Positions 1 through 5,005 of a DNA stretch of 5,005 nt are shown here, one piece after another. The position numbers and the translations under genes are program-made. How positions within the stretch are numbered: the first letter of the stretch is position 1; each line of letters opens with the position of its first letter. The notes below the pieces were generated by a model. The model worked only from the letters and a program-made list of their open reading frames with translations. It made no database searches and was not told the DNA's origin. Origin of the DNA: a virus (Duplodnaviria; Heunggongvirae; Uroviricota; Caudoviricetes); IMG/VR virus record IMGVR_UViG_2695420809_000013. One strand, written 5' to 3'.

Positions 1-1074
1 TCATTTGTTGATTTCAATTTTGTCCCATTCTCTCCCTCGGCTGTCCCTATACCGCGCCGCCATTGAATCTGATTTATGCCCGAGAAGACGTTGAGCAAAC
101 TTATCGCCAATCTGATTCCGGTATAGCCTCGCCGACAGGCTACGCAGTTCATGGAATGTTGGCGGGTCTCCATCAAATGAGAGTCCAGATGCATTTCTCG
201 CCTTTGTAAAATACTTAGATACTGTTTTCGGGGAAAGCGGTTCGTGATGCGTTGATGCAATTATTGTTTCACTGCCGCTGACCTCCCTGCATTTCTGTAG
301 TGTATCGGCCAATGAGATATTGAGCGCGTCAATCGTTAGCGTCAGCGGAATGGCGAGCTTAGCCCCTGTTTTACCCTGTTCAATGTGAAGATGGTTGTCG
401 TTTATGTCTGACCATTTCATTTTGCACAAATCGCCGACTCTCTGACCTGTAACGACGGCCAAATCCATCGCAAGCCTCAGCCAGATTGGGAGAGGTTCGG
501 CTGCATGGTGAATCGCGACATACTCATTAGCTGTCAGCCTTGAGCGCCTTACTTCTGACTTTGCTGTGCGGGTTGCTGTTACCGGATTCGTAGCCACATG
601 CCCCTCGGCTATTGCCTCACGAAAAACGTCAACAAGGGTTGACCTGATTAATTTTGCGGAAGCCGCTTTACCTTCTGCTACGTAGGTGTTTAGCATTGCT
701 GCCACCTCTTTCGTTGATATGTCAGCGAGCGGTTTGTCCGGCAATTTTCTTCGGATTGCCCTGATTTTGCTGGCGTAGTCGAGTAGAGTTTTCGGCCTGA
801 TACCCCTCTCGCTGAGGATTGTTTCATATCGGTCAAGCCACGCATGAAGAGTGATTGCGTCAGCGCCTTTAATTCTGTCTATCAGTGACTCACGCCTGTT
901 CCCGGATAGCAACTCAATATTGGCCTGTATAGCTTCAGTGATTGCTATACGTCTGTCTCTGCCTAATCCGAACTCTTTACCCGTCCTTGGGTCCCTGTAG
1001 CAGTAATATCCATTGTTTCTTATATAAAGGTTAGGGGGTAAATCCCGGCGCTCATGACTTCGCCTTCTTCCCAT
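1..1074 (-). CDS. int: Lambda-family tyrosine integrase (site-specific recombinase Int), complete 357 aa
   Basis: Full-length ORF; N-terminus MGRRRSHERRDLPPNLYIRNNGYYCYRDPRTGKEFGLGRDRRIAITEA and C-terminal region HELRSLSARLY...LLGH...Y match phage lambda Int as I recall it (catalytic-domain R, H-x-x-R and Y motifs present). Start overlaps the end of xis, as in lambda. Stop codon is at window positions 3..1. Confidence 0.95.
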   Translation of the reverse strand: MGRRRSHERRDLPPNLYIRNNGYYCYRDPRTGKEFGLGRDRRIAITEAIQANIELLSGNRRESLIDRIKGADAITLHAWLDRYETILSERGIRPKTLLDYASKIRAIRRKLPDKPLADISTKEVAAMLNTYVAEGKAASAKLIRSTLVDVFREAIAEGHVATNPVTATRTAKSEVRRSRLTANEYVAIHHAAEPLPIWLRLAMDLAVVTGQRVGDLCKMKWSDINDNHLHIEQGKTGAKLAIPLTLTIDALNISLADTLQKCREVSGSETIIASTHHEPLSPKTVSKYFTKARNASGLSFDGDPPTFHELRSLSARLYRNQIGDKFAQRLLGHKSDSMAARYRDSRGREWDKIEINK

Positions 1075-1270
1075 TTTTGATCCTCTTCAAAAGGCTACCT
1101 GTTACTGGTCGATTTAAGTCAATTTTTACCGCTGATTCGTGGAACAAATACTCTCTTCCATCCTTAACAGGAGGAGGGAATATCCTGCACTCGCGTACCC
1201 ATCGACGAACTGTTTCAAGGCTTCTTGGGCGCCGCTGGCGTGCGTTCCACTCCTGAAGTGTCAAGTACAT
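1052..1270 (-). CDS. xis: Excisionase Xis (72 aa)
   Basis: Translation MYLTLQEWNARQRRPRSLETVRRWVRECRIFPPPVKDGREYLFHESAVK... is nearly identical to lambda Xis from memory. The 3' end overlaps the int start by 23 nt (lambda-like arrangement). GGAG lies 8 nt upstream of the ATG on the minus strand. Confidence 0.93.
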   Translation of the reverse strand: MYLTLQEWNARQRRPRSLETVRRWVRECRIFPPPVKDGREYLFHESAVKIDLNRPVTGSLLKRIKNGKKAKS

Positions 1271-1293
1271 CGCAAAGTCTCCGCAATTACACG

Positions 1294-1320
1294 CAAGAAA
1301 AAGCCGCCATCAGGCGGCTT
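1294..1320 (-). terminator. Candidate intrinsic terminator between the Cys-motif ORF and xis
   Basis: Perfect 8-bp inverted repeat AAGCCGCC/GGCGGCTT (1301-1308 and 1313-1320) with a 4-nt loop; on the minus strand it is followed by TTTTTCTT (plus 1294-1300). It sits about 40 nt downstream of the stop at 1361. Confidence 0.5.
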
Positions 1321-1360
1321 GGTGTTCTTTCAGTTCTTCAATTCGAATATTGGTTACGTC

Positions 1361-1672
1361 TTATTCGATGCGCACTCCTGGTATTTCGCCTTTTGATATT
1401 GCTAAGTCATAAATTTGCGCGGCACTATACCCATCTCGCATCCATGAATCTAAGGCGCGAACAGCCTCGCTACGCTTTTTATCTTCTCTCTCATTTTTGA
1501 TATCAACGAGGACATCAACGCAATTAAGGCAAATGTGGATTTTGTCCTTACATTCGATCATGGCGGCTTTGCCATGATTTCCGCCACACAGTGAGCATAA
1601 ATCTTCAGGGGCTGGCTGGTATTTCTGTAACGTTAGAGGGTTGAATGTTGAACAGGCCATAATCATCTCCAT
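1361..1672 (-). CDS. Hypothetical small Cys-motif protein (CxxC...CxxC, putative zinc ribbon), in the Ea8.5-equivalent position upstream of xis
   Basis: ORF of 103 aa with CSLCGG and CLNC motifs. The likely true start is the third in-frame ATG at 1660 (GGAG 6 nt upstream on the minus strand), giving 99 aa. Resemblance to lambda Ea8.5 is positional and motif-level only, not verified. Confidence 0.55.
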   Translation of the reverse strand: MEMIMACSTFNPLTLQKYQPAPEDLCSLCGGNHGKAAMIECKDKIHICLNCVDVLVDIKNEREDKKRSEAVRALDSWMRDGYSAAQIYDLAISKGEIPGVRIE

Positions 1673-1727
1673 AAAACAAAACTCGCCGTAGCGAGTTCAG
1701 ATAAAAGAAATCCCCGCGAGTGCGAGG
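1671..1727 (-). terminator. Two tandem hairpin plus U-tract elements directly upstream of the Cys-motif ORF start (terminator or attenuator-like)
   Basis: Minus-strand RNA would contain CCUCGC-ACUC-GCGGGG (plus 1712-1727, one G-U wobble) followed by AUUUCUUUUAU, then AACUCGC-UACG-GCGAGUU (plus 1680-1697) followed by UUUUGUUUUAU, which abuts the GGAG and ATG of the next ORF. Confidence 0.4.
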
Positions 1728-1856
1728 ATAGTTATTCATTGTCGATATTTACATTTATTTCGAATATCTTTACTGGGTAATCGCCAAAGTCATATGTTTT
1801 TTATTCTGTTTTATAAGCACTACCAAGTACTGCTTATTACAAATAAGAAAAGGCTG

Positions 1857-1885
1857 AAAAAATATTTAAGGCCACAACTGTGGCC
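1857..1885 (-). terminator. Candidate intrinsic terminator of the LprI-like moron gene
   Basis: Inverted repeat GGCCACA/TGTGGCC at 1870-1885, starting 11 nt after the TAA stop (1896-1898); on the minus strand it is followed by TTAAATATTTTTT (plus 1857-1869). Confidence 0.6.
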
Positions 1886-1895
1886 CTAAATTTAC

Positions 1896-2594
1896 TTACG
1901 GCACTGCGTTAATCAGATTACAAATACCTCTTTTGGCAGGGTCTGAATTCAACTTCTGAAAATTGGCGTTCAACATAGCCGTGTGTAAGTGATTCTCAAC
2001 CTCAAAGAATAAGTCGATTTTGCCCTCTTTGGCTGCCTGTTTCTTCCAAATATTCACTTGGTCATCAGCAATACGACTGGCGCAAGTGAACAAGAACGAA
2101 CTGCCTCTAGGAATGGATGTCGTGCTGTAATACTCACCATCTACTTCTACATATTTAGCTCGGAATGACTCTAAGGTTAGCTCATTGCCGTTCTTGACCG
2201 ACTTAGCTTCTGCCTTACTTGTTTCTTCCTGCTCTTCAGAATGTTTCTGCGCCGACGTGGGTATGTCATTGGCCGCTGTTACGCTGACTGAACTCCCCAA
2301 ACCTTTGAGGCCATTAATTTGGATAAGATAAGCCAGCTCCAGAGCCTTATTATCAGTGAGTTTTCCACGCATATTTACCCACTGACGTTGAACCATTTTT
2401 AGGGTGTCTGCGTTCTCTGGGTTTCCTTTGAGGGCACTAGAATAGGCAGAGCTAAGCTGTTCGTCTAATTTTGACAGACGTTCGTTATCGCAGATTTTAT
2501 GTTCGATTGCTGTCGAAGCCTTTTGGCAGTCAAAGCTGGCTGCAAATGCACCCGGCGATGCCACTAACAATGATGCCAGTAGGATATTTTTCAT
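1896..2594 (-). CDS. Secreted protein with an N-terminal LprI/DUF1311-like domain and an uncharacterised C-terminal domain (moron-like cargo gene)
   Basis: Start assigned to the second ATG (2594-2592) because GGAG lies 6 nt upstream on the minus strand; the ORF-track start at 2621 falls inside the putative promoter. Signal peptide MKNILLASLLVASPGAFA|AS with an AxA cleavage motif and no lipobox. Mature N-terminus CQKASTAIEHKICDNERLSKLDEQLSSAYSSAL...VQRQWVNMR fits the DUF1311 pattern (C..A....E..IC....L...D..L...Y......QR.W) from memory. Four Cys residues suggest periplasmic disulfides. The region is visibly more AT-rich than its flanks. Confidence 0.75.
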   Translation of the reverse strand: MKNILLASLLVASPGAFAASFDCQKASTAIEHKICDNERLSKLDEQLSSAYSSALKGNPENADTLKMVQRQWVNMRGKLTDNKALELAYLIQINGLKGLGSSVSVTAANDIPTSAQKHSEEQEETSKAEAKSVKNGNELTLESFRAKYVEVDGEYYSTTSIPRGSSFLFTCASRIADDQVNIWKKQAAKEGKIDLFFEVENHLHTAMLNANFQKLNSDPAKRGICNLINAVP

Positions 2595-2599
2595 ATTCA

Positions 2600-2672
2600 C
2601 TCCATAAATACAAAAGCGCATTACTATAGCACTTAACCGATCGCTTATCTCGCCCGTTCGTCATTCTTATCT
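2600..2672 (-). promoter_or_regulatory. Candidate sigma70 promoter (extended -10) for the LprI-like gene, with upstream direct repeats
   Basis: On the minus strand, TGcTATAGT (the -10 hexamer TATAGT corresponds to plus 2628-2623, with TG at 2631-2630) lies about 30 nt upstream of the ATG. The -35 is weak (GAGATA at a 17-nt spacer). A 7-bp direct repeat CTTATCT on the plus strand at 2644-2650 and 2666-2672 (AGATAAG on the minus strand) overlaps and lies upstream of the -35 region. Confidence 0.35.
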
Positions 2673-2724
2673 AACCAGAACATGCGACTGCCACAGCACA
2701 TGTCGAGGATTGCTGCATGTCCAG

Positions 2725-3162
2725 TCACTGGTTGCCTCCTTTGCGAAGCTGGGCGGCTAACTCATCACATATGTGCGTCAAAGAGCAAAGTTTGATTGAT
2801 GGGTGTTCGCGCATCATCTCAACCCCCTGCGCCCGCACTTCAGACAGGAAAGAGTCGGTGGCTGGGGTTTCAACACGGATGCTGTCGCGCAAGATGAAAA
2901 ATGCATTGAGCATTCCAGTCTCTGGCACTTCATCCTGATGCTTCTCATACTCATCAAGAGCCTTCATCATCTCTGCTCCGAATGGTTGAGGGTGCACAGA
3001 CTTCAGCTCCGCATTCTCCGCCGCCAGCGCCGCGCACTTGGCCTCCGCTTCAGCAAATTTGCGTACCAGATATTCAGCATTTGTTTCGTTAACCTTTAAA
3101 TCACATGGGATGCATTTACCTTTCAGAAATCCATCCATCTCAATTAGTGTCATTCGTTTCAT
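2725..3162 (-). CDS. Hypothetical protein (145 aa from the ATG at 3162; the ORF-track start at 3180 is a GTG)
   Basis: Long ORF in the same orientation as the operon. The ATG at 3162-3160 overlaps the TGA of the upstream small ORF (ATGA coupling) and has a GGAG/GGGAAG purine-rich stretch upstream. Contains a predicted coiled-coil-like stretch ([19 protein letters not shown]). No family assigned. Confidence 0.6.
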
Positions 3163-3323
3163 TTCTTCCCACTCCGCCACATCGCATTCAGATATTTGTT
3201 TTGATTCACTGACGGAGAAGAATTTCTCTTAAGCAATTCCTCTCTCGATGGCATTGGCTTTACGCGTTGGCGAATAATCATTTCTGCCGGAAGAATGCCG
3301 GGATTGTATGCAAGTCCTCTCAT
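3159..3323 (-). CDS. Hypothetical small protein (54 aa; start ambiguous, alternative ATG at 3341)
   Basis: The ATG at 3323 is preceded by GAGG with an 8-nt spacer, and the stop overlaps the next gene start in ATGA fashion, suggesting real translation. The longer 104-aa track ORF (start 3473) would overlap the preceding gene by about 140 nt in another frame and is less likely. Confidence 0.35.
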
Positions 3324-3333
3324 GGTAAATTCC

Positions 3334-3627
3334 TCAGTCATTACTGATAGCGCCATAGCGTGATCGATAATTACGCAGGCGCGGGTCAATTTCAGGGAAG
3401 TGGGTATATGTGGCTTTGCGGAATGGTCGGATTGATGTCTGGTAAATTCGCTCGCGTTCTTCTTTCTCTGCAAGCCATATACAATGGCGAAATTCCTTTT
3501 CCTCTTTCGTTTCCTGCGGTAGCGACATTATCCGATCGTAGTTTTTTCTGAATTTATCCAGCACCTCCGATACGGAATTGCCGGAACAGCGGCGCGGGTC
3601 ATCCGCACCATACAGAGGCGCTGGCAT
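3334..3627 (-). CDS. Hypothetical protein (97 aa)
   Basis: Strong SD AGGAG 6 nt upstream of the ATG (3627), 13 nt after the ssb stop. Charged protein rich in K/E/R; no family recognised by eye. Confidence 0.6.
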
Positions 3628-3640
3628 GATTTTCTCCTGA

Positions 3641-4147
3641 TTAAATTGCGTGAATAGCGTGACGAGGGAAGGGGAGAGTTACTGGTGCAAAGGGTATATC
3701 GTCGTCAAAATCCATCGGAGGTTCGTTGTGTTGTGCTGGTGATGATTGCTGCTGTGGCTTCTGTGATTGCCTGCTGGCTGCTTGTTGTTTGCTGTCGCCA
3801 ATGCCGCCAAGCATTTGCATCACGCCATTAATTCCGACATGAACCTCGGTTGTGTAACGGTCTTGCCCTGACTGGTCTTTCCACTTTCTGGTTCTCAGCA
3901 TTCCCTCGAAATAAATCTGATCACCTTTTTTCACATACTGCCCCACGACCTCAGCCAGTTTCCCGGATACAGCAACACGATGCCATTCAGTCAATTACTT
4001 TTGCTCGCCAGTATTTTTATCTCGCCATTGTTCTGACGTGGCTATTGTCAGGTTAGCGAACGCTGTTCCTGATGGTGAGTATCGAACTTCCGGGTCTTGT
4101 CCTACCCGACCAAGGATAATCACCTTATTTATCCCGCGAGAACTCAT
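3641..4147 (-). pseudogene. ssb: Single-stranded DNA-binding protein (SSB) gene interrupted by an in-frame TAA and carrying a 15-aa extension past the canonical DDDIPF C-terminus
   Basis: N-terminal part [50 protein letters not shown] (4147-3998) and C-terminal part [63 protein letters not shown]...[11 protein letters not shown] both align with E. coli SSB as remembered, in the same frame, separated by TAA at 3997-3995 where E. coli has Glu. The reading frame then continues past IPF as [15 protein letters not shown] before the stop at 3643-3641. The start has a GAGGTGGAG SD and overlaps the rusA stop (ATGA). Confidence 0.8.
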
Positions 4148-4527
4148 TTGCTCCACCTCTTGCCAGTTTTTATGTTGCTTATAATTGATTGAGATACACC
4201 CATGACCGGTCCCCACTCAACCAGCATTCTTTTCACCTGACTGTCGTCTTCCCACACACCCGCGTGGGTCAGGGCGTCAAACAGCGCCTTGTTATAGTTG
4301 TCCAGATCGCGGATCCGGTTATCCGGAGGAAACAACACAATCTCTACTGAAGCTGGTGCCGACGTTGGTTTCGGCAAACGACGTAACTGCTCAACTATTG
4401 CTGCGCACGCCGCGCTCTGGAATTTTCGCCCCGCCGCGCTTATCAGGCTCTTACCAGCAAACGCCCCTTTGTTGGGGTGTCGCCAGTACGTGTTCACGCT
4501 GGGCGGAAAAGGCAGAATCAGCTTCAT
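4144..4527 (-). CDS. rusA: RusA-family Holliday-junction resolvase (crossover junction endodeoxyribonuclease)
   Basis: [13 protein letters not shown] and [26 protein letters not shown] match E. coli RusA motifs ([39 protein letters not shown]) from memory, including the catalytic Asp residues. GAGAGGGG SD upstream; the ATG overlaps the stop of the upstream gene and the stop overlaps the ssb ATG. Confidence 0.8.
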
Positions 4528-4850
4528 ACTTTCAGGCCCCTCTCATGTAACCAGTGGGCTGCACGCAGCCTGCTGTTTTCCTCACCGGCAAGCAGTGCGC
4601 GGATAATCCCGACCGCCTCGCTGTCGTCGTCCTTCATCGCGGTATGAAGCGTTATCCCCCGGGCCACGCCACGCTTTATCGTGATGACGCCTTTTTTCTC
4701 CAGTGCTCGAAGATGCTCCACCGCTGCATTCACTGAACGGTATCCCAGCATGGTTGCCACCTCCTGATTGGTTGGCGGGAAGCCACGTTCTTTCTGGTAA
4801 GAAATCAGCATATCCAGCACCTGCTGCTGGCATTGAGTTAACGTCGTCAT
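4524..4850 (-). CDS. LexA-family DNA-binding-domain protein lacking the S24 autopeptidase domain (108 aa)
   Basis: LTQCQQQVLDMLISYQKERGFPPTNQEVATMLGYRSVNAAVEHLRALEKKGVITIKRGVARGITL parallels the E. coli LexA N-terminal winged-helix domain ([65 protein letters not shown]) as recalled. The C-terminal 35 aa have no Ala-Gly cleavage context and no Ser/Lys dyad domain. GGGAG SD; translationally coupled to flanking genes. Confidence 0.75.
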   Translation of the reverse strand: MTTLTQCQQQVLDMLISYQKERGFPPTNQEVATMLGYRSVNAAVEHLRALEKKGVITIKRGVARGITLHTAMKDDDSEAVGIIRALLAGEENSRLRAAHWLHERGLKV

Positions 4851-5005
4851 GCAGCCATCTCCCTGACCAGTTTTTCCGCCTGCTGGCGAACCTGCGCCAG
4901 AAAGGCCTCACCACATGCCTCAAGTTCATCGCGCCCGATGTAGCTGATTGCCGGTCCCTTCCAGGTCTTGTCGAAAACAGCAATAGCACCAGCGAAGAAA
5001 GCGCC
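4847..5005 (-). CDS. Hypothetical protein, 3' portion only (N-terminus lies beyond the window end)
   Basis: Open frame from the window edge, hand-translated as ...GAFFAGAIAVFDKTWKGPAISYIGRDELEACGEAFLAQVRQQAEKLVREMAA, ending in a TGA (4849-4847) that overlaps the ATG of the LexA-like gene. Absent from the ORF track because it has no in-window start. Confidence 0.5.
   Translation of the reverse strand, partial: GAFFAGAIAVFDKTWKGPAISYIGRDELEACGEAFLAQVRQQAEKLVREMAA

Follow-up and report, generated by a model that had tools for sequence, protein, structure and literature searches.

Here we describe a gene cassette in a 5,005-nucleotide stretch of viral DNA (the window, by which we mean that whole stretch) from the IMG/VR record IMGVR_UViG_2695420809_000013, a member of the Caudoviricetes. 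The minus strand of the window is the delayed-early arm of a lambdoid (lambda-like) Escherichia coli prophage. Read 5′ to 3′ along that strand, the genes are one resembling a LexA DNA-binding domain, rusA, ssb, abc2 (anti-RecBCD), an ea22-like gene, the cassette gene that concerns us here, orf103 (phrog_3680), xis, and int, so that the cassette fills a slot between the ea22-like gene and orf103-xis-int. An identical region is found in E. coli A25, where it adjoins torS. An initial annotation, made from the letters of the sequence, had proposed that positions 1857-2672 hold a self-contained, AT-rich moron between the early genes and xis/int, encoding a secreted two-domain protein of the LprI/DUF1311 type. 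The placement agrees with the neighbors on both sides, with Ea22-like, Abc2, ssb and rusA upstream and orf103, xis and int downstream. Taken alone, the proposal that this is a mobile cassette encoding an exported protein is highly probable; the activity of that protein is a more tentative matter, to which we build up below. The features of the cassette are as follows.

1859-2663, no strand assigned: mobile block of promoter region, gene and terminator, with 82-84% nucleotide identity to SSU5-type phage-plasmids
2623-2631, minus strand: putative extended −10 element TGCTATAGT, read from the sequence, conserved as TGATATAGT in SSU5 and inside the homology block
2600-2603, minus strand: Shine-Dalgarno sequence GGAG, read from the sequence and identical in SSU5
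1896-2594, minus strand: coding sequence of a predicted secreted two-domain protein of 232 amino acids, from the list of open reading frames, the Shine-Dalgarno sequence and the RefSeq start (stop codon 1896-1898)
2541-2594, minus strand: signal peptide by rule-based prediction, residues 1-18 MKNILLASLLVASPGAFA, cleaved before AS
2298-2540, minus strand: N-terminal DUF1311/LprI-like helical domain, residues 19-99, with conserved Cys23-Cys35, from Pfam PF07007
2190-2297, minus strand: low-complexity linker, residues 100-135 (36 amino acids), variable in length and rich in Ser, Thr, Lys and Glu, from alignments and a predicted local distance difference test score (pLDDT) of 23-31
1899-2189, minus strand: C-terminal domain, residues 136-232 (about 97 amino acids), modeled as a short helix, a beta-hairpin and three long helices
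1854-1891, minus strand: intrinsic terminator, a 12-bp GC-cored hairpin (1864-1891) and U-tract, from a terminator scan and folding

The best documented property of this block is that it travels. By megablast it is 83.8% identical to the Salmonella phage-plasmid SSU5, with the match restricted to window positions 1865-2663, and in a pairwise alignment the homology runs from the terminator hairpin to about 12 nucleotides upstream of the −35 position, with unrelated flanks on either side. Eleven SSU5-like viral contigs give identical limits, from 1859 to 2651-2663. The block is also present on 126 plasmid records, whose sources are Enterobacter, Escherichia and Citrobacter; most of those listed measure 105-125 kb, and 119 records carry a prediction of being non-mobilizable. 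The whole block occurs in 107 of 5,426 complete E. coli genomes. Copies in lambdoid prophages have at least three combinations of flanks, next to int alleles that are 75-100% identical. In the Shiga toxin (Stx) phages 933W and Stx2_EH2086, the orf103 and ea22-like flanks are kept and a gene for an ASCH-domain protein fills the slot. Its presence in replicons that are not related to one another shows that the block travels as a cassette, and the slot flanked by orf103 and the ea22-like gene is a hotspot for the exchange of cargo. This mobility is the strongest evidence that the gene is a moron, as had been proposed.

Two details of these comparisons can be recorded here. The ASCH-domain gene lies at positions 1872-2285 of the locus from Stx2_EH2086 (an Stx2a phage; our locus L003) and is L0064 in 933W, and the ea22-like gene is longer in the Stx phages, at 277 amino acids as against 151. 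Synonymous divergence (dS) from the SSU5-type copies is uneven along the cassette gene, being lowest in the signal peptide (0.07-0.22), higher in the N-terminal domain (0.3-0.5) and highest in the C-terminal domain (1.0-1.26), which suggests intragenic recombination in which the 5′ half and the promoter were exchanged more recently.

Morons are well known from lambdoid phages, where the concept was developed by Hendrix and colleagues, and examples include bor and lom of lambda and the morons of HK97 and HK022; a moron in this slot is an ordinary occurrence. The cassette shares with these the position of an extra gene between conserved phage genes, a terminator of its own, a candidate promoter, absence from close relatives, and a product that is predicted to reside in the envelope and likely to benefit the lysogen. 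It differs from them in two respects: its gene family is also regularly found in lytic T4-like phages, so that it is not purely a matter of lysogenic conversion, and its contrast in base composition is weak. The guanine-cytosine (GC) content of 1857-2672 is 43.5% (44.5% for the coding sequence and 44.2% for the module), compared with 46.3% in the left flank and 51.0% in the right, and ranks at the 20th percentile among 816-bp windows. The stretch said to be visibly richer in AT than its flanks does have a lower GC content than both of them, but the difference is modest and the adjacent orf103, at 43.9%, matches it. The AT-richest stretch is the intergenic region 1673-1864 (33% GC), which lies mostly outside the mobile block. 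Composition by itself is a weak argument for a moron.

The cassette gene lies in an open reading frame that spans 1896-2621 on the minus strand and would encode 241 amino acids from its upstream ATG. The likely start is instead the ATG at 2594, which has GGAG five nucleotides upstream and is the start used by RefSeq WP_000789829.1. The ATG at 2621 was rejected as a start; it has no Shine-Dalgarno sequence and lies upstream of the expected start of transcription. At the other end of the gene, the initial annotation had identified a hairpin and U-tract terminator, and this is well supported. In the terminator scan the hairpin (1864-1891) comprises 12 base pairs, with AUAUUUUUU after it; its folding energy is −17.6 kcal/mol (z = −4.5), it is kept in SSU5 with compensating differences, and most of the distant homologues likewise have a hairpin directly behind them. 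Altogether the 228 nucleotides 3′ of the stop codon (1673-1900, minus strand) hold four stem-loops, at 1864-1891, 1799-1851, 1710-1729 and 1679-1698 (z = −4.0), three of which score as terminator-like. The four may insulate orf103, xis and int from transcription of the cassette. No Rfam family was found in the window.

The extended −10 promoter that had been assigned to the gene fares less well. The motif is present, and both it (as TGnTATAGT) and the Shine-Dalgarno sequence are conserved between the window and SSU5. However, motifs of this type are no more frequent than chance would have it (three in the window against 3.9 expected), the candidate −35 hexamer GAGATA at 2646-2651 is weak, with three of six positions matching, and a standard promoter scan of the window did not report the site at 2623-2631. 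If the promoter is used, transcription would be expected to start near 2614-2618. A promoter belonging to the cassette is plausible but unproven, and the mobility of the block makes it more credible than the motif alone would.

It might be instead that this is an ordinary delayed-early gene read from pL only, in which case TGnTATAGT is a chance motif and the hairpin a pause site or terminator that is overridden by N. Besides the poor statistics of the promoter motif and its −35, this explanation draws on the orientation of the gene, which is on the same strand as the whole of the pL arm, on a base composition that barely differs from that of orf103, and on the homologues in T4-like phages and in one further locus (L008), which sit inside operons. 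What speaks against it is the shape of the SSU5 homology, with one end just upstream of the −35 and the other just past the U-tract, as would be the case for a unit with its own signals; the −10 and the Shine-Dalgarno sequence are conserved and the sequence beyond the block is unrelated, and morons typically show a strong terminator immediately behind a gene that lies within an operon. We regard transcription from pL only as rather unlikely, and since it concerns expression alone, it is compatible with every reading of the function.

The protein itself begins with a signal peptide, as had been proposed. By a rule-based check of its regions it is of the cleavable Sec type, with an n-region of MK, an h-region of ILLASLLVAS and a c-region of PGAFA that places Ala at both −3 and −1, and the same check found no lipobox and no further hydrophobic segment in the 232 residues. 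The AASFDC junction is conserved in nine of ten relatives, and the homologue in Aeromonas phage 31 is annotated “contains predicted signal peptide”. The N-terminal domain matches PF07007 (LprI) at residues 23-78, scoring 25.3 bits where the cutoff is 22 (E = 2.1e-5), which supports the proposed DUF1311/LprI assignment, though the match covers only positions 1-70 of the 106 in the profile. Cys23 and Cys35 (C-x11-C) are conserved in all relatives that have this domain. What had been described as a C-terminal domain of roughly 120 amino acids does contain a folded domain, but it resolves into the linker of 36 amino acids and a domain of about 97.

Selection has acted very differently on these parts. 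Relative to the SSU5-type copies, the ratio of nonsynonymous to synonymous divergence (dN/dS) is 0.16-0.20 overall, and it is 0.09-0.23 in the N-terminal domain, 0.60-0.85 in the linker and 0.07-0.09 in the C-terminal domain. By this measure both domains are under strong purifying selection while the linker is nearly neutral, and the pattern implies that both domains are functional and that the linker is merely a tether. Each domain has an invariant pair of cysteines, four in total, which fits a periplasmic protein, and from the sequence we infer a periplasmic location and disulfide bonds, the expected ones being C23-C35 and C171-C225.

The C-terminal domain had been called impossible to place, and so it has proved. 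A full-length AlphaFold2 model built on a shallow alignment was too poor to use (pLDDT 48.7). Modeled alone with nine diverse sequences, the C-terminal domain gives a confident prediction (pLDDT 88.3, predicted template modeling score 0.81), in which a short helix and a beta-hairpin (YVEVDGEYYST) are followed by three long helices. An alignment of 11 sequences from prophage, phage-plasmid, islet, T4-like and jumbo-phage sources has four invariant residues: G153, which lies in the hairpin, C171, N209 and C225. The domain has no match in Pfam or PADLOC and nothing meaningful in NCBIfam. MliC (PF09864) was absent at E ≤ 1 for this domain, and at E ≤ 0.01 for the whole protein. By sequence it has no relative in the PDB, where the matches were chance ones to ORC6, a designed helical repeat and Staphylococcal protein A repeats. 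An exhaustive search with the single sequence of the domain retrieved only 12 clusters among 1.84 billion representatives, two of which (P0059 and P0060) are large repeat proteins that we judged to be spurious, and two profile searches of a set of 5.8 billion proteins returned close relatives only. The believable distant clusters share the two-domain architecture, except for P0062, in which the domain follows a lipoprotein signal and the N-terminus is another one. A Foldseek search of predicted viral structures found Aeromonas phage proteins with query-normalized template modeling scores (TMq) of 0.77-0.79, one of which is annotated as DUF1311.

The gene family reaches well beyond temperate phages. 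A word-indexed homologue search gave 52 matches, all of them at least 64% identical. When phage genomes were searched with the full protein by tblastn, 154 records matched, of which 150 are below 60% identity. By host, 65 are phages of Aeromonas, 49 of Escherichia and 24 of Klebsiella, and they are overwhelmingly T4-like Straboviridae. Full-length homologues with both domains occur in these lytic T4-like phages at 26-30% identity; the alignment with ORF027c of Aeromonas phage 31, for instance, is full-length at 27% identity (E = 2e-15) and has both cysteines of the C-terminal domain in register. The homologue of Aeromonas phages 31 and IME13, like that of Klebsiella phage Marfa, has the primase gene 61 on one side and the dCTPase gene 56 on the other, and so lies within the 41-61-56 cluster of replication genes, whose T4 counterpart is early. 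The domains are also reassorted. RB49 and other T4-like phages have the N-terminal domain only, with a different C-terminus (RB49p262), and in PHROGs the N-terminal domain is joined to other C-termini (phrog_14799, phrog_33858 and phrog_4895). Finally, the Serratia and Yersinia copies are carried as cargo by a small serine-recombinase islet; a scan of genome contigs found two Serratia loci only. Given the full-length homologues in strictly lytic phages, the “lysogenic conversion” suggested for this gene is too narrow a role.

The islet copies deserve a brief description of their own. In Serratia sp. H1w (942-3277 of locus L043), the islet lies beside an ABC-F ATPase gene and moeB/moeA and carries, besides the two-domain homologue, an XRE-type regulator and an LmuC-like gene (PADLOC, 8.5e-8) with a 377-amino-acid partner; the latter two look like a Lamassu-type defense pair. 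The Yersinia homologue is at a site equivalent to that of the Serratia islet. In Yersinia enterocolitica (226-756 of locus L004, cluster P0058), the annotated protein of 176 amino acids starts at an internal Met, and the frame upstream continues as SFDCSKESTQVETLICQ with a DUF1311-like N-terminal domain present, so that the gene call is truncated.

Some of this was known before. RefSeq lists the protein as “lysozyme inhibitor LprI family protein” (WP_000789829.1), while PHROG 4675 has no function assigned, so the existence of the gene and its DUF1311 label are not new. Searches under five identifiers for the protein and its homologues found no paper, and three things appear not to have been described previously: the two-domain subfamily as such, a C-terminal domain that is modeled with confidence and has neither a family nor a relative among solved structures, and the occurrence of one predicted periplasmic protein in lambdoid prophages, in SSU5-type phage-plasmids, in integrative islets and in virulent phages of both the T4-like and the jumbo kind.

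The initial annotation had put forward lysozyme or effector inhibition and superinfection exclusion as possible functions, and these stay hypothetical. DUF1311 is the only family-level clue to what the protein does. The namesake, Mycobacterium tuberculosis LprI (Rv1541c), inhibits lysozyme and also carries an MliC domain (PMC7933661). Our protein shares with it, and with PF07007 in general, a predicted export signal and an N-terminal helical domain with a conserved pair of cysteines. It differs from LprI in having neither a lipobox (its first cysteine comes after the AFA/AS cleavage site) nor MliC, and from the family at large in matching only part of the profile, in adding a C-terminal domain that has no Pfam family, and in its relatives, which have turned up solely on phages, on phage-plasmids and on integrative islets.

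A different DUF1311 protein suggests a different role. ScwA of Salmonella Typhimurium (SL1344_0490) is a horizontally acquired, low-GC, periplasmic protein of 275 amino acids with two disulfide bridges and the LprI domain at its C-terminus, in residues 185-271 (PMC7933661). By analogy, our protein might modulate lytic transglycosylases or amidases of the host and thereby alter envelope homeostasis, the release of peptidoglycan fragments or the virulence of the lysogen. The likenesses are horizontal acquisition, a GC content below that of the surroundings (only modestly so here), DUF1311, a periplasmic location (predicted here), and, in part, the disulfides, since our protein has four cysteines in two conserved pairs where ScwA has two bridges. 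The architecture, however, differs, our protein having its DUF1311-like domain at the N-terminus; orthology is not indicated, and ScwA is chromosomal where our protein is phage-borne. Moreover, the role demonstrated for ScwA is control of MltD levels rather than inhibition of foreign enzymes, the distant relatives of our protein are proteins of mobile elements and phages with no ScwA-like chromosomal protein among them, and a housekeeping role fits poorly with carriage by lytic phages. We therefore hold a ScwA-like function to be very unlikely.

Proteins with a signal peptide and DUF1311 have also been reported or predicted as immunity proteins against lysozyme-like or transglycosylase effectors of type VI secretion systems (T6SS). 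Examples are Etsi4 of enterohemorrhagic E. coli (PMC12981562), SED_RS06230 of S. Dublin (PMC8867033), orphan immunity genes of Pantoea (PMC9796082) and neighbors of WHIX effectors (PMC12135965). Perhaps, then, the cassette is an orphan T6SS immunity gene that rides on mobile elements, neutralizes the muramidase or transglycosylase effector of a competing member of the Enterobacteriaceae, and raises the gut fitness of the lysogen or plasmid carrier. The shared features are the signal peptide with DUF1311, the predicted periplasmic location and the precedent of orphan genes, and our gene is always an orphan and always on a mobile element. The known immunity proteins, however, are short and single-domain (about 146 amino acids in S. 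Dublin) and usually adjoin their effector in a T6SS island, whereas ours has an extra conserved domain and neither an effector nor a T6SS cluster beside it in any locus examined. Its two-domain homologues in strictly lytic T4-like phages would also gain little from protection against neighboring bacteria. An orphan immunity gene of this kind seems to us quite unlikely.

The best-known precedent comes from the phages themselves. Spackle (Sp, gene 61.3) of T4 is an early, periplasmic, helical, disulfide-bonded protein that blocks the gp5 tail lysozyme of a superinfecting phage (PMC7677548). Like Spackle, our protein is phage-encoded and has a signal peptide, and it is predicted to be helical and to contain disulfides; its T4-like homologues are found in the same 41-61-56 neighborhood. 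Of the 65 Aeromonas phage records with our protein, at most four have a Spackle detectable by tblastn. The two differ in that Spackle is a single domain of 75 amino acids when mature and our protein has two domains. Carriage by lytic T4-like phages, among replication genes that in T4 belong to the early ones, points to an envelope function centered on the phage, and it is this phage-centered carriage, together with the DUF1311 clue and the precedent of Spackle, that leads us to favor antagonism of a hydrolase.

In the model we tentatively favor, which we put somewhat short of probable, the protein would act in the periplasm against peptidoglycan hydrolases that come from outside, either in superinfection exclusion or in protection akin to T6SS immunity. 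The extended −10 promoter of the cassette would drive the gene in the lysogen, and since the gene lies on the pL strand, it would also be transcribed from pL during lytic growth. The terminator and the three further stem-loops would keep transcription of the cassette out of xis and int, while polymerase modified by N and coming from pL would read through them. The product would be exported by Sec, cleaved after AFA, and fold in the periplasm as two helical domains, each stabilized by a disulfide, on a flexible linker, the one DUF1311-like and the other unclassified. There it would bind and neutralize such a peptidoglycan-degrading enzyme on its arrival, for instance a superinfecting phage's tail-associated lysozyme or transglycosylase, or else a T6SS effector of the muramidase type, and the phage-carrying cell would be protected. 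The protein would then be a functional analogue of both T4 Spackle and the DUF1311-type T6SS immunity proteins. Both the promoter activity and the whole of the biochemical activity are things we infer. A bolder extension, which we consider doubtful, is that the family constitutes a second, widespread class of phage periplasmic inhibitors of virion-associated or injected cell-wall hydrolases, analogous to Spackle but unrelated to it in sequence, in which a DUF1311-like module is combined with a C-terminal domain whose invariant beta-hairpin provides target specificity.

Several observations weigh against hydrolase antagonism. The Pfam match on which it leans is marginal as well as partial, and in the relatives it ranges from 15.6 to 26 bits, with several below threshold and the phage homologues sharing the same partial coverage. 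The lysozyme-inhibitor label of DUF1311 is itself insecure, given that LprI also has MliC and that ScwA gives no protection from lysozyme and controls MltD levels instead (PMC7933661). No sequence or profile similarity to Spackle was detected, the hhalign probability being 14% and confined to the signal peptide. The T4-like homologues are not in the exact Spackle slot, a possibility we considered and rejected, for they lie between 61 and 56 whereas sp of T4 lies between 41 and 61. Nor are the two simple substitutes for one another, since Klebsiella phage Marfa encodes both. No hydrolase or effector gene is adjacent in the window, in SSU5, in the Serratia and Yersinia islets or in the T4-like phages examined. 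The C-terminal domain has no fold relative among solved structures and so gives no hint of a target, and the promoter through which the lysogen would be protected has, as noted above, a −10 motif that occurs at chance frequency.

A protein of this kind might also exclude superinfecting phages or remodel the envelope without inhibiting any hydrolase. It could bind a component of the host envelope that is used for DNA entry, such as the domain of an inner-membrane transporter, a periplasmic chaperone or the periplasmic face of a receptor, or it could bind the periplasmic domain of a holin or antiholin and so affect the timing of lysis. The predicted periplasmic location, the presence in phages of three lifestyles and the 41-61-56 cluster of the T4-like phages are all consistent with such a role, and the modular exchange of domains seen in P0062, RB49p262 and the three PHROGs would suit an adaptor with a variable target. 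However, the protein resembles no known exclusion protein and the 232 residues have no match in PADLOC, while the DUF1311 clue points to antagonism of peptidoglycan hydrolases instead. We judge exclusion by this route to be improbable.

If the protein does antagonize incoming hydrolases, it would be a portable, single-gene module of envelope defense that crosses between temperate phages, phage-plasmids and lytic phages. Such phage-plasmids are common in clinical Enterobacter, Citrobacter and Salmonella, and the module would bear on the host range of therapeutic phages, on competition between phages and possibly on T6SS competition in the gut. It would also offer a tractable phage model for DUF1311, a large family whose name as a lysozyme inhibitor is in question, and a function could be assigned to the C-terminal domain, for which neither a family nor a fold relative is known at present. 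If it does not, the cassette is simply an accessory gene that had been annotated correctly and occupies a variable slot of the kind typical of lambdoid phages.

A few observations concern the neighboring genes. Base 3997, within 3995-3997, is A in the window and C in the nearest relatives, the viral contig L013 and E. coli A25, and is the sole difference from those two across 1-4204. The A creates an in-frame stop on the minus strand and splits ssb (3641-4147) into two open reading frames. The exact sequence of 3940-4204 was not found among the 5,426 complete E. coli genomes, where the best matches have one mismatch (99.6% over 265 nucleotides). A second irregularity lies at 4204/4205, where positions 4205-5005 directly abut 4204 although L013 holds 1,999 bp between them. 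None of the complete E. coli genomes spans this junction, at which the middle of rusA is joined to the stretch just upstream of ssb (where A25 has the 3′ end of an HNH endonuclease gene), so that RusA acquires an aberrant C-terminus; the junction may reflect natural decay of the prophage or an artefact of the assembly or the window. On the other side of the cassette, orf103 (1361-1672, minus strand) encodes a protein of 103 amino acids that is conserved across Stx and lambdoid phages and contains a CxxC...CxxC motif, with a weak likeness to the N-terminal zinc-binding region of ClpX (NCBIfam E = 0.002-0.004, far below the cutoff).

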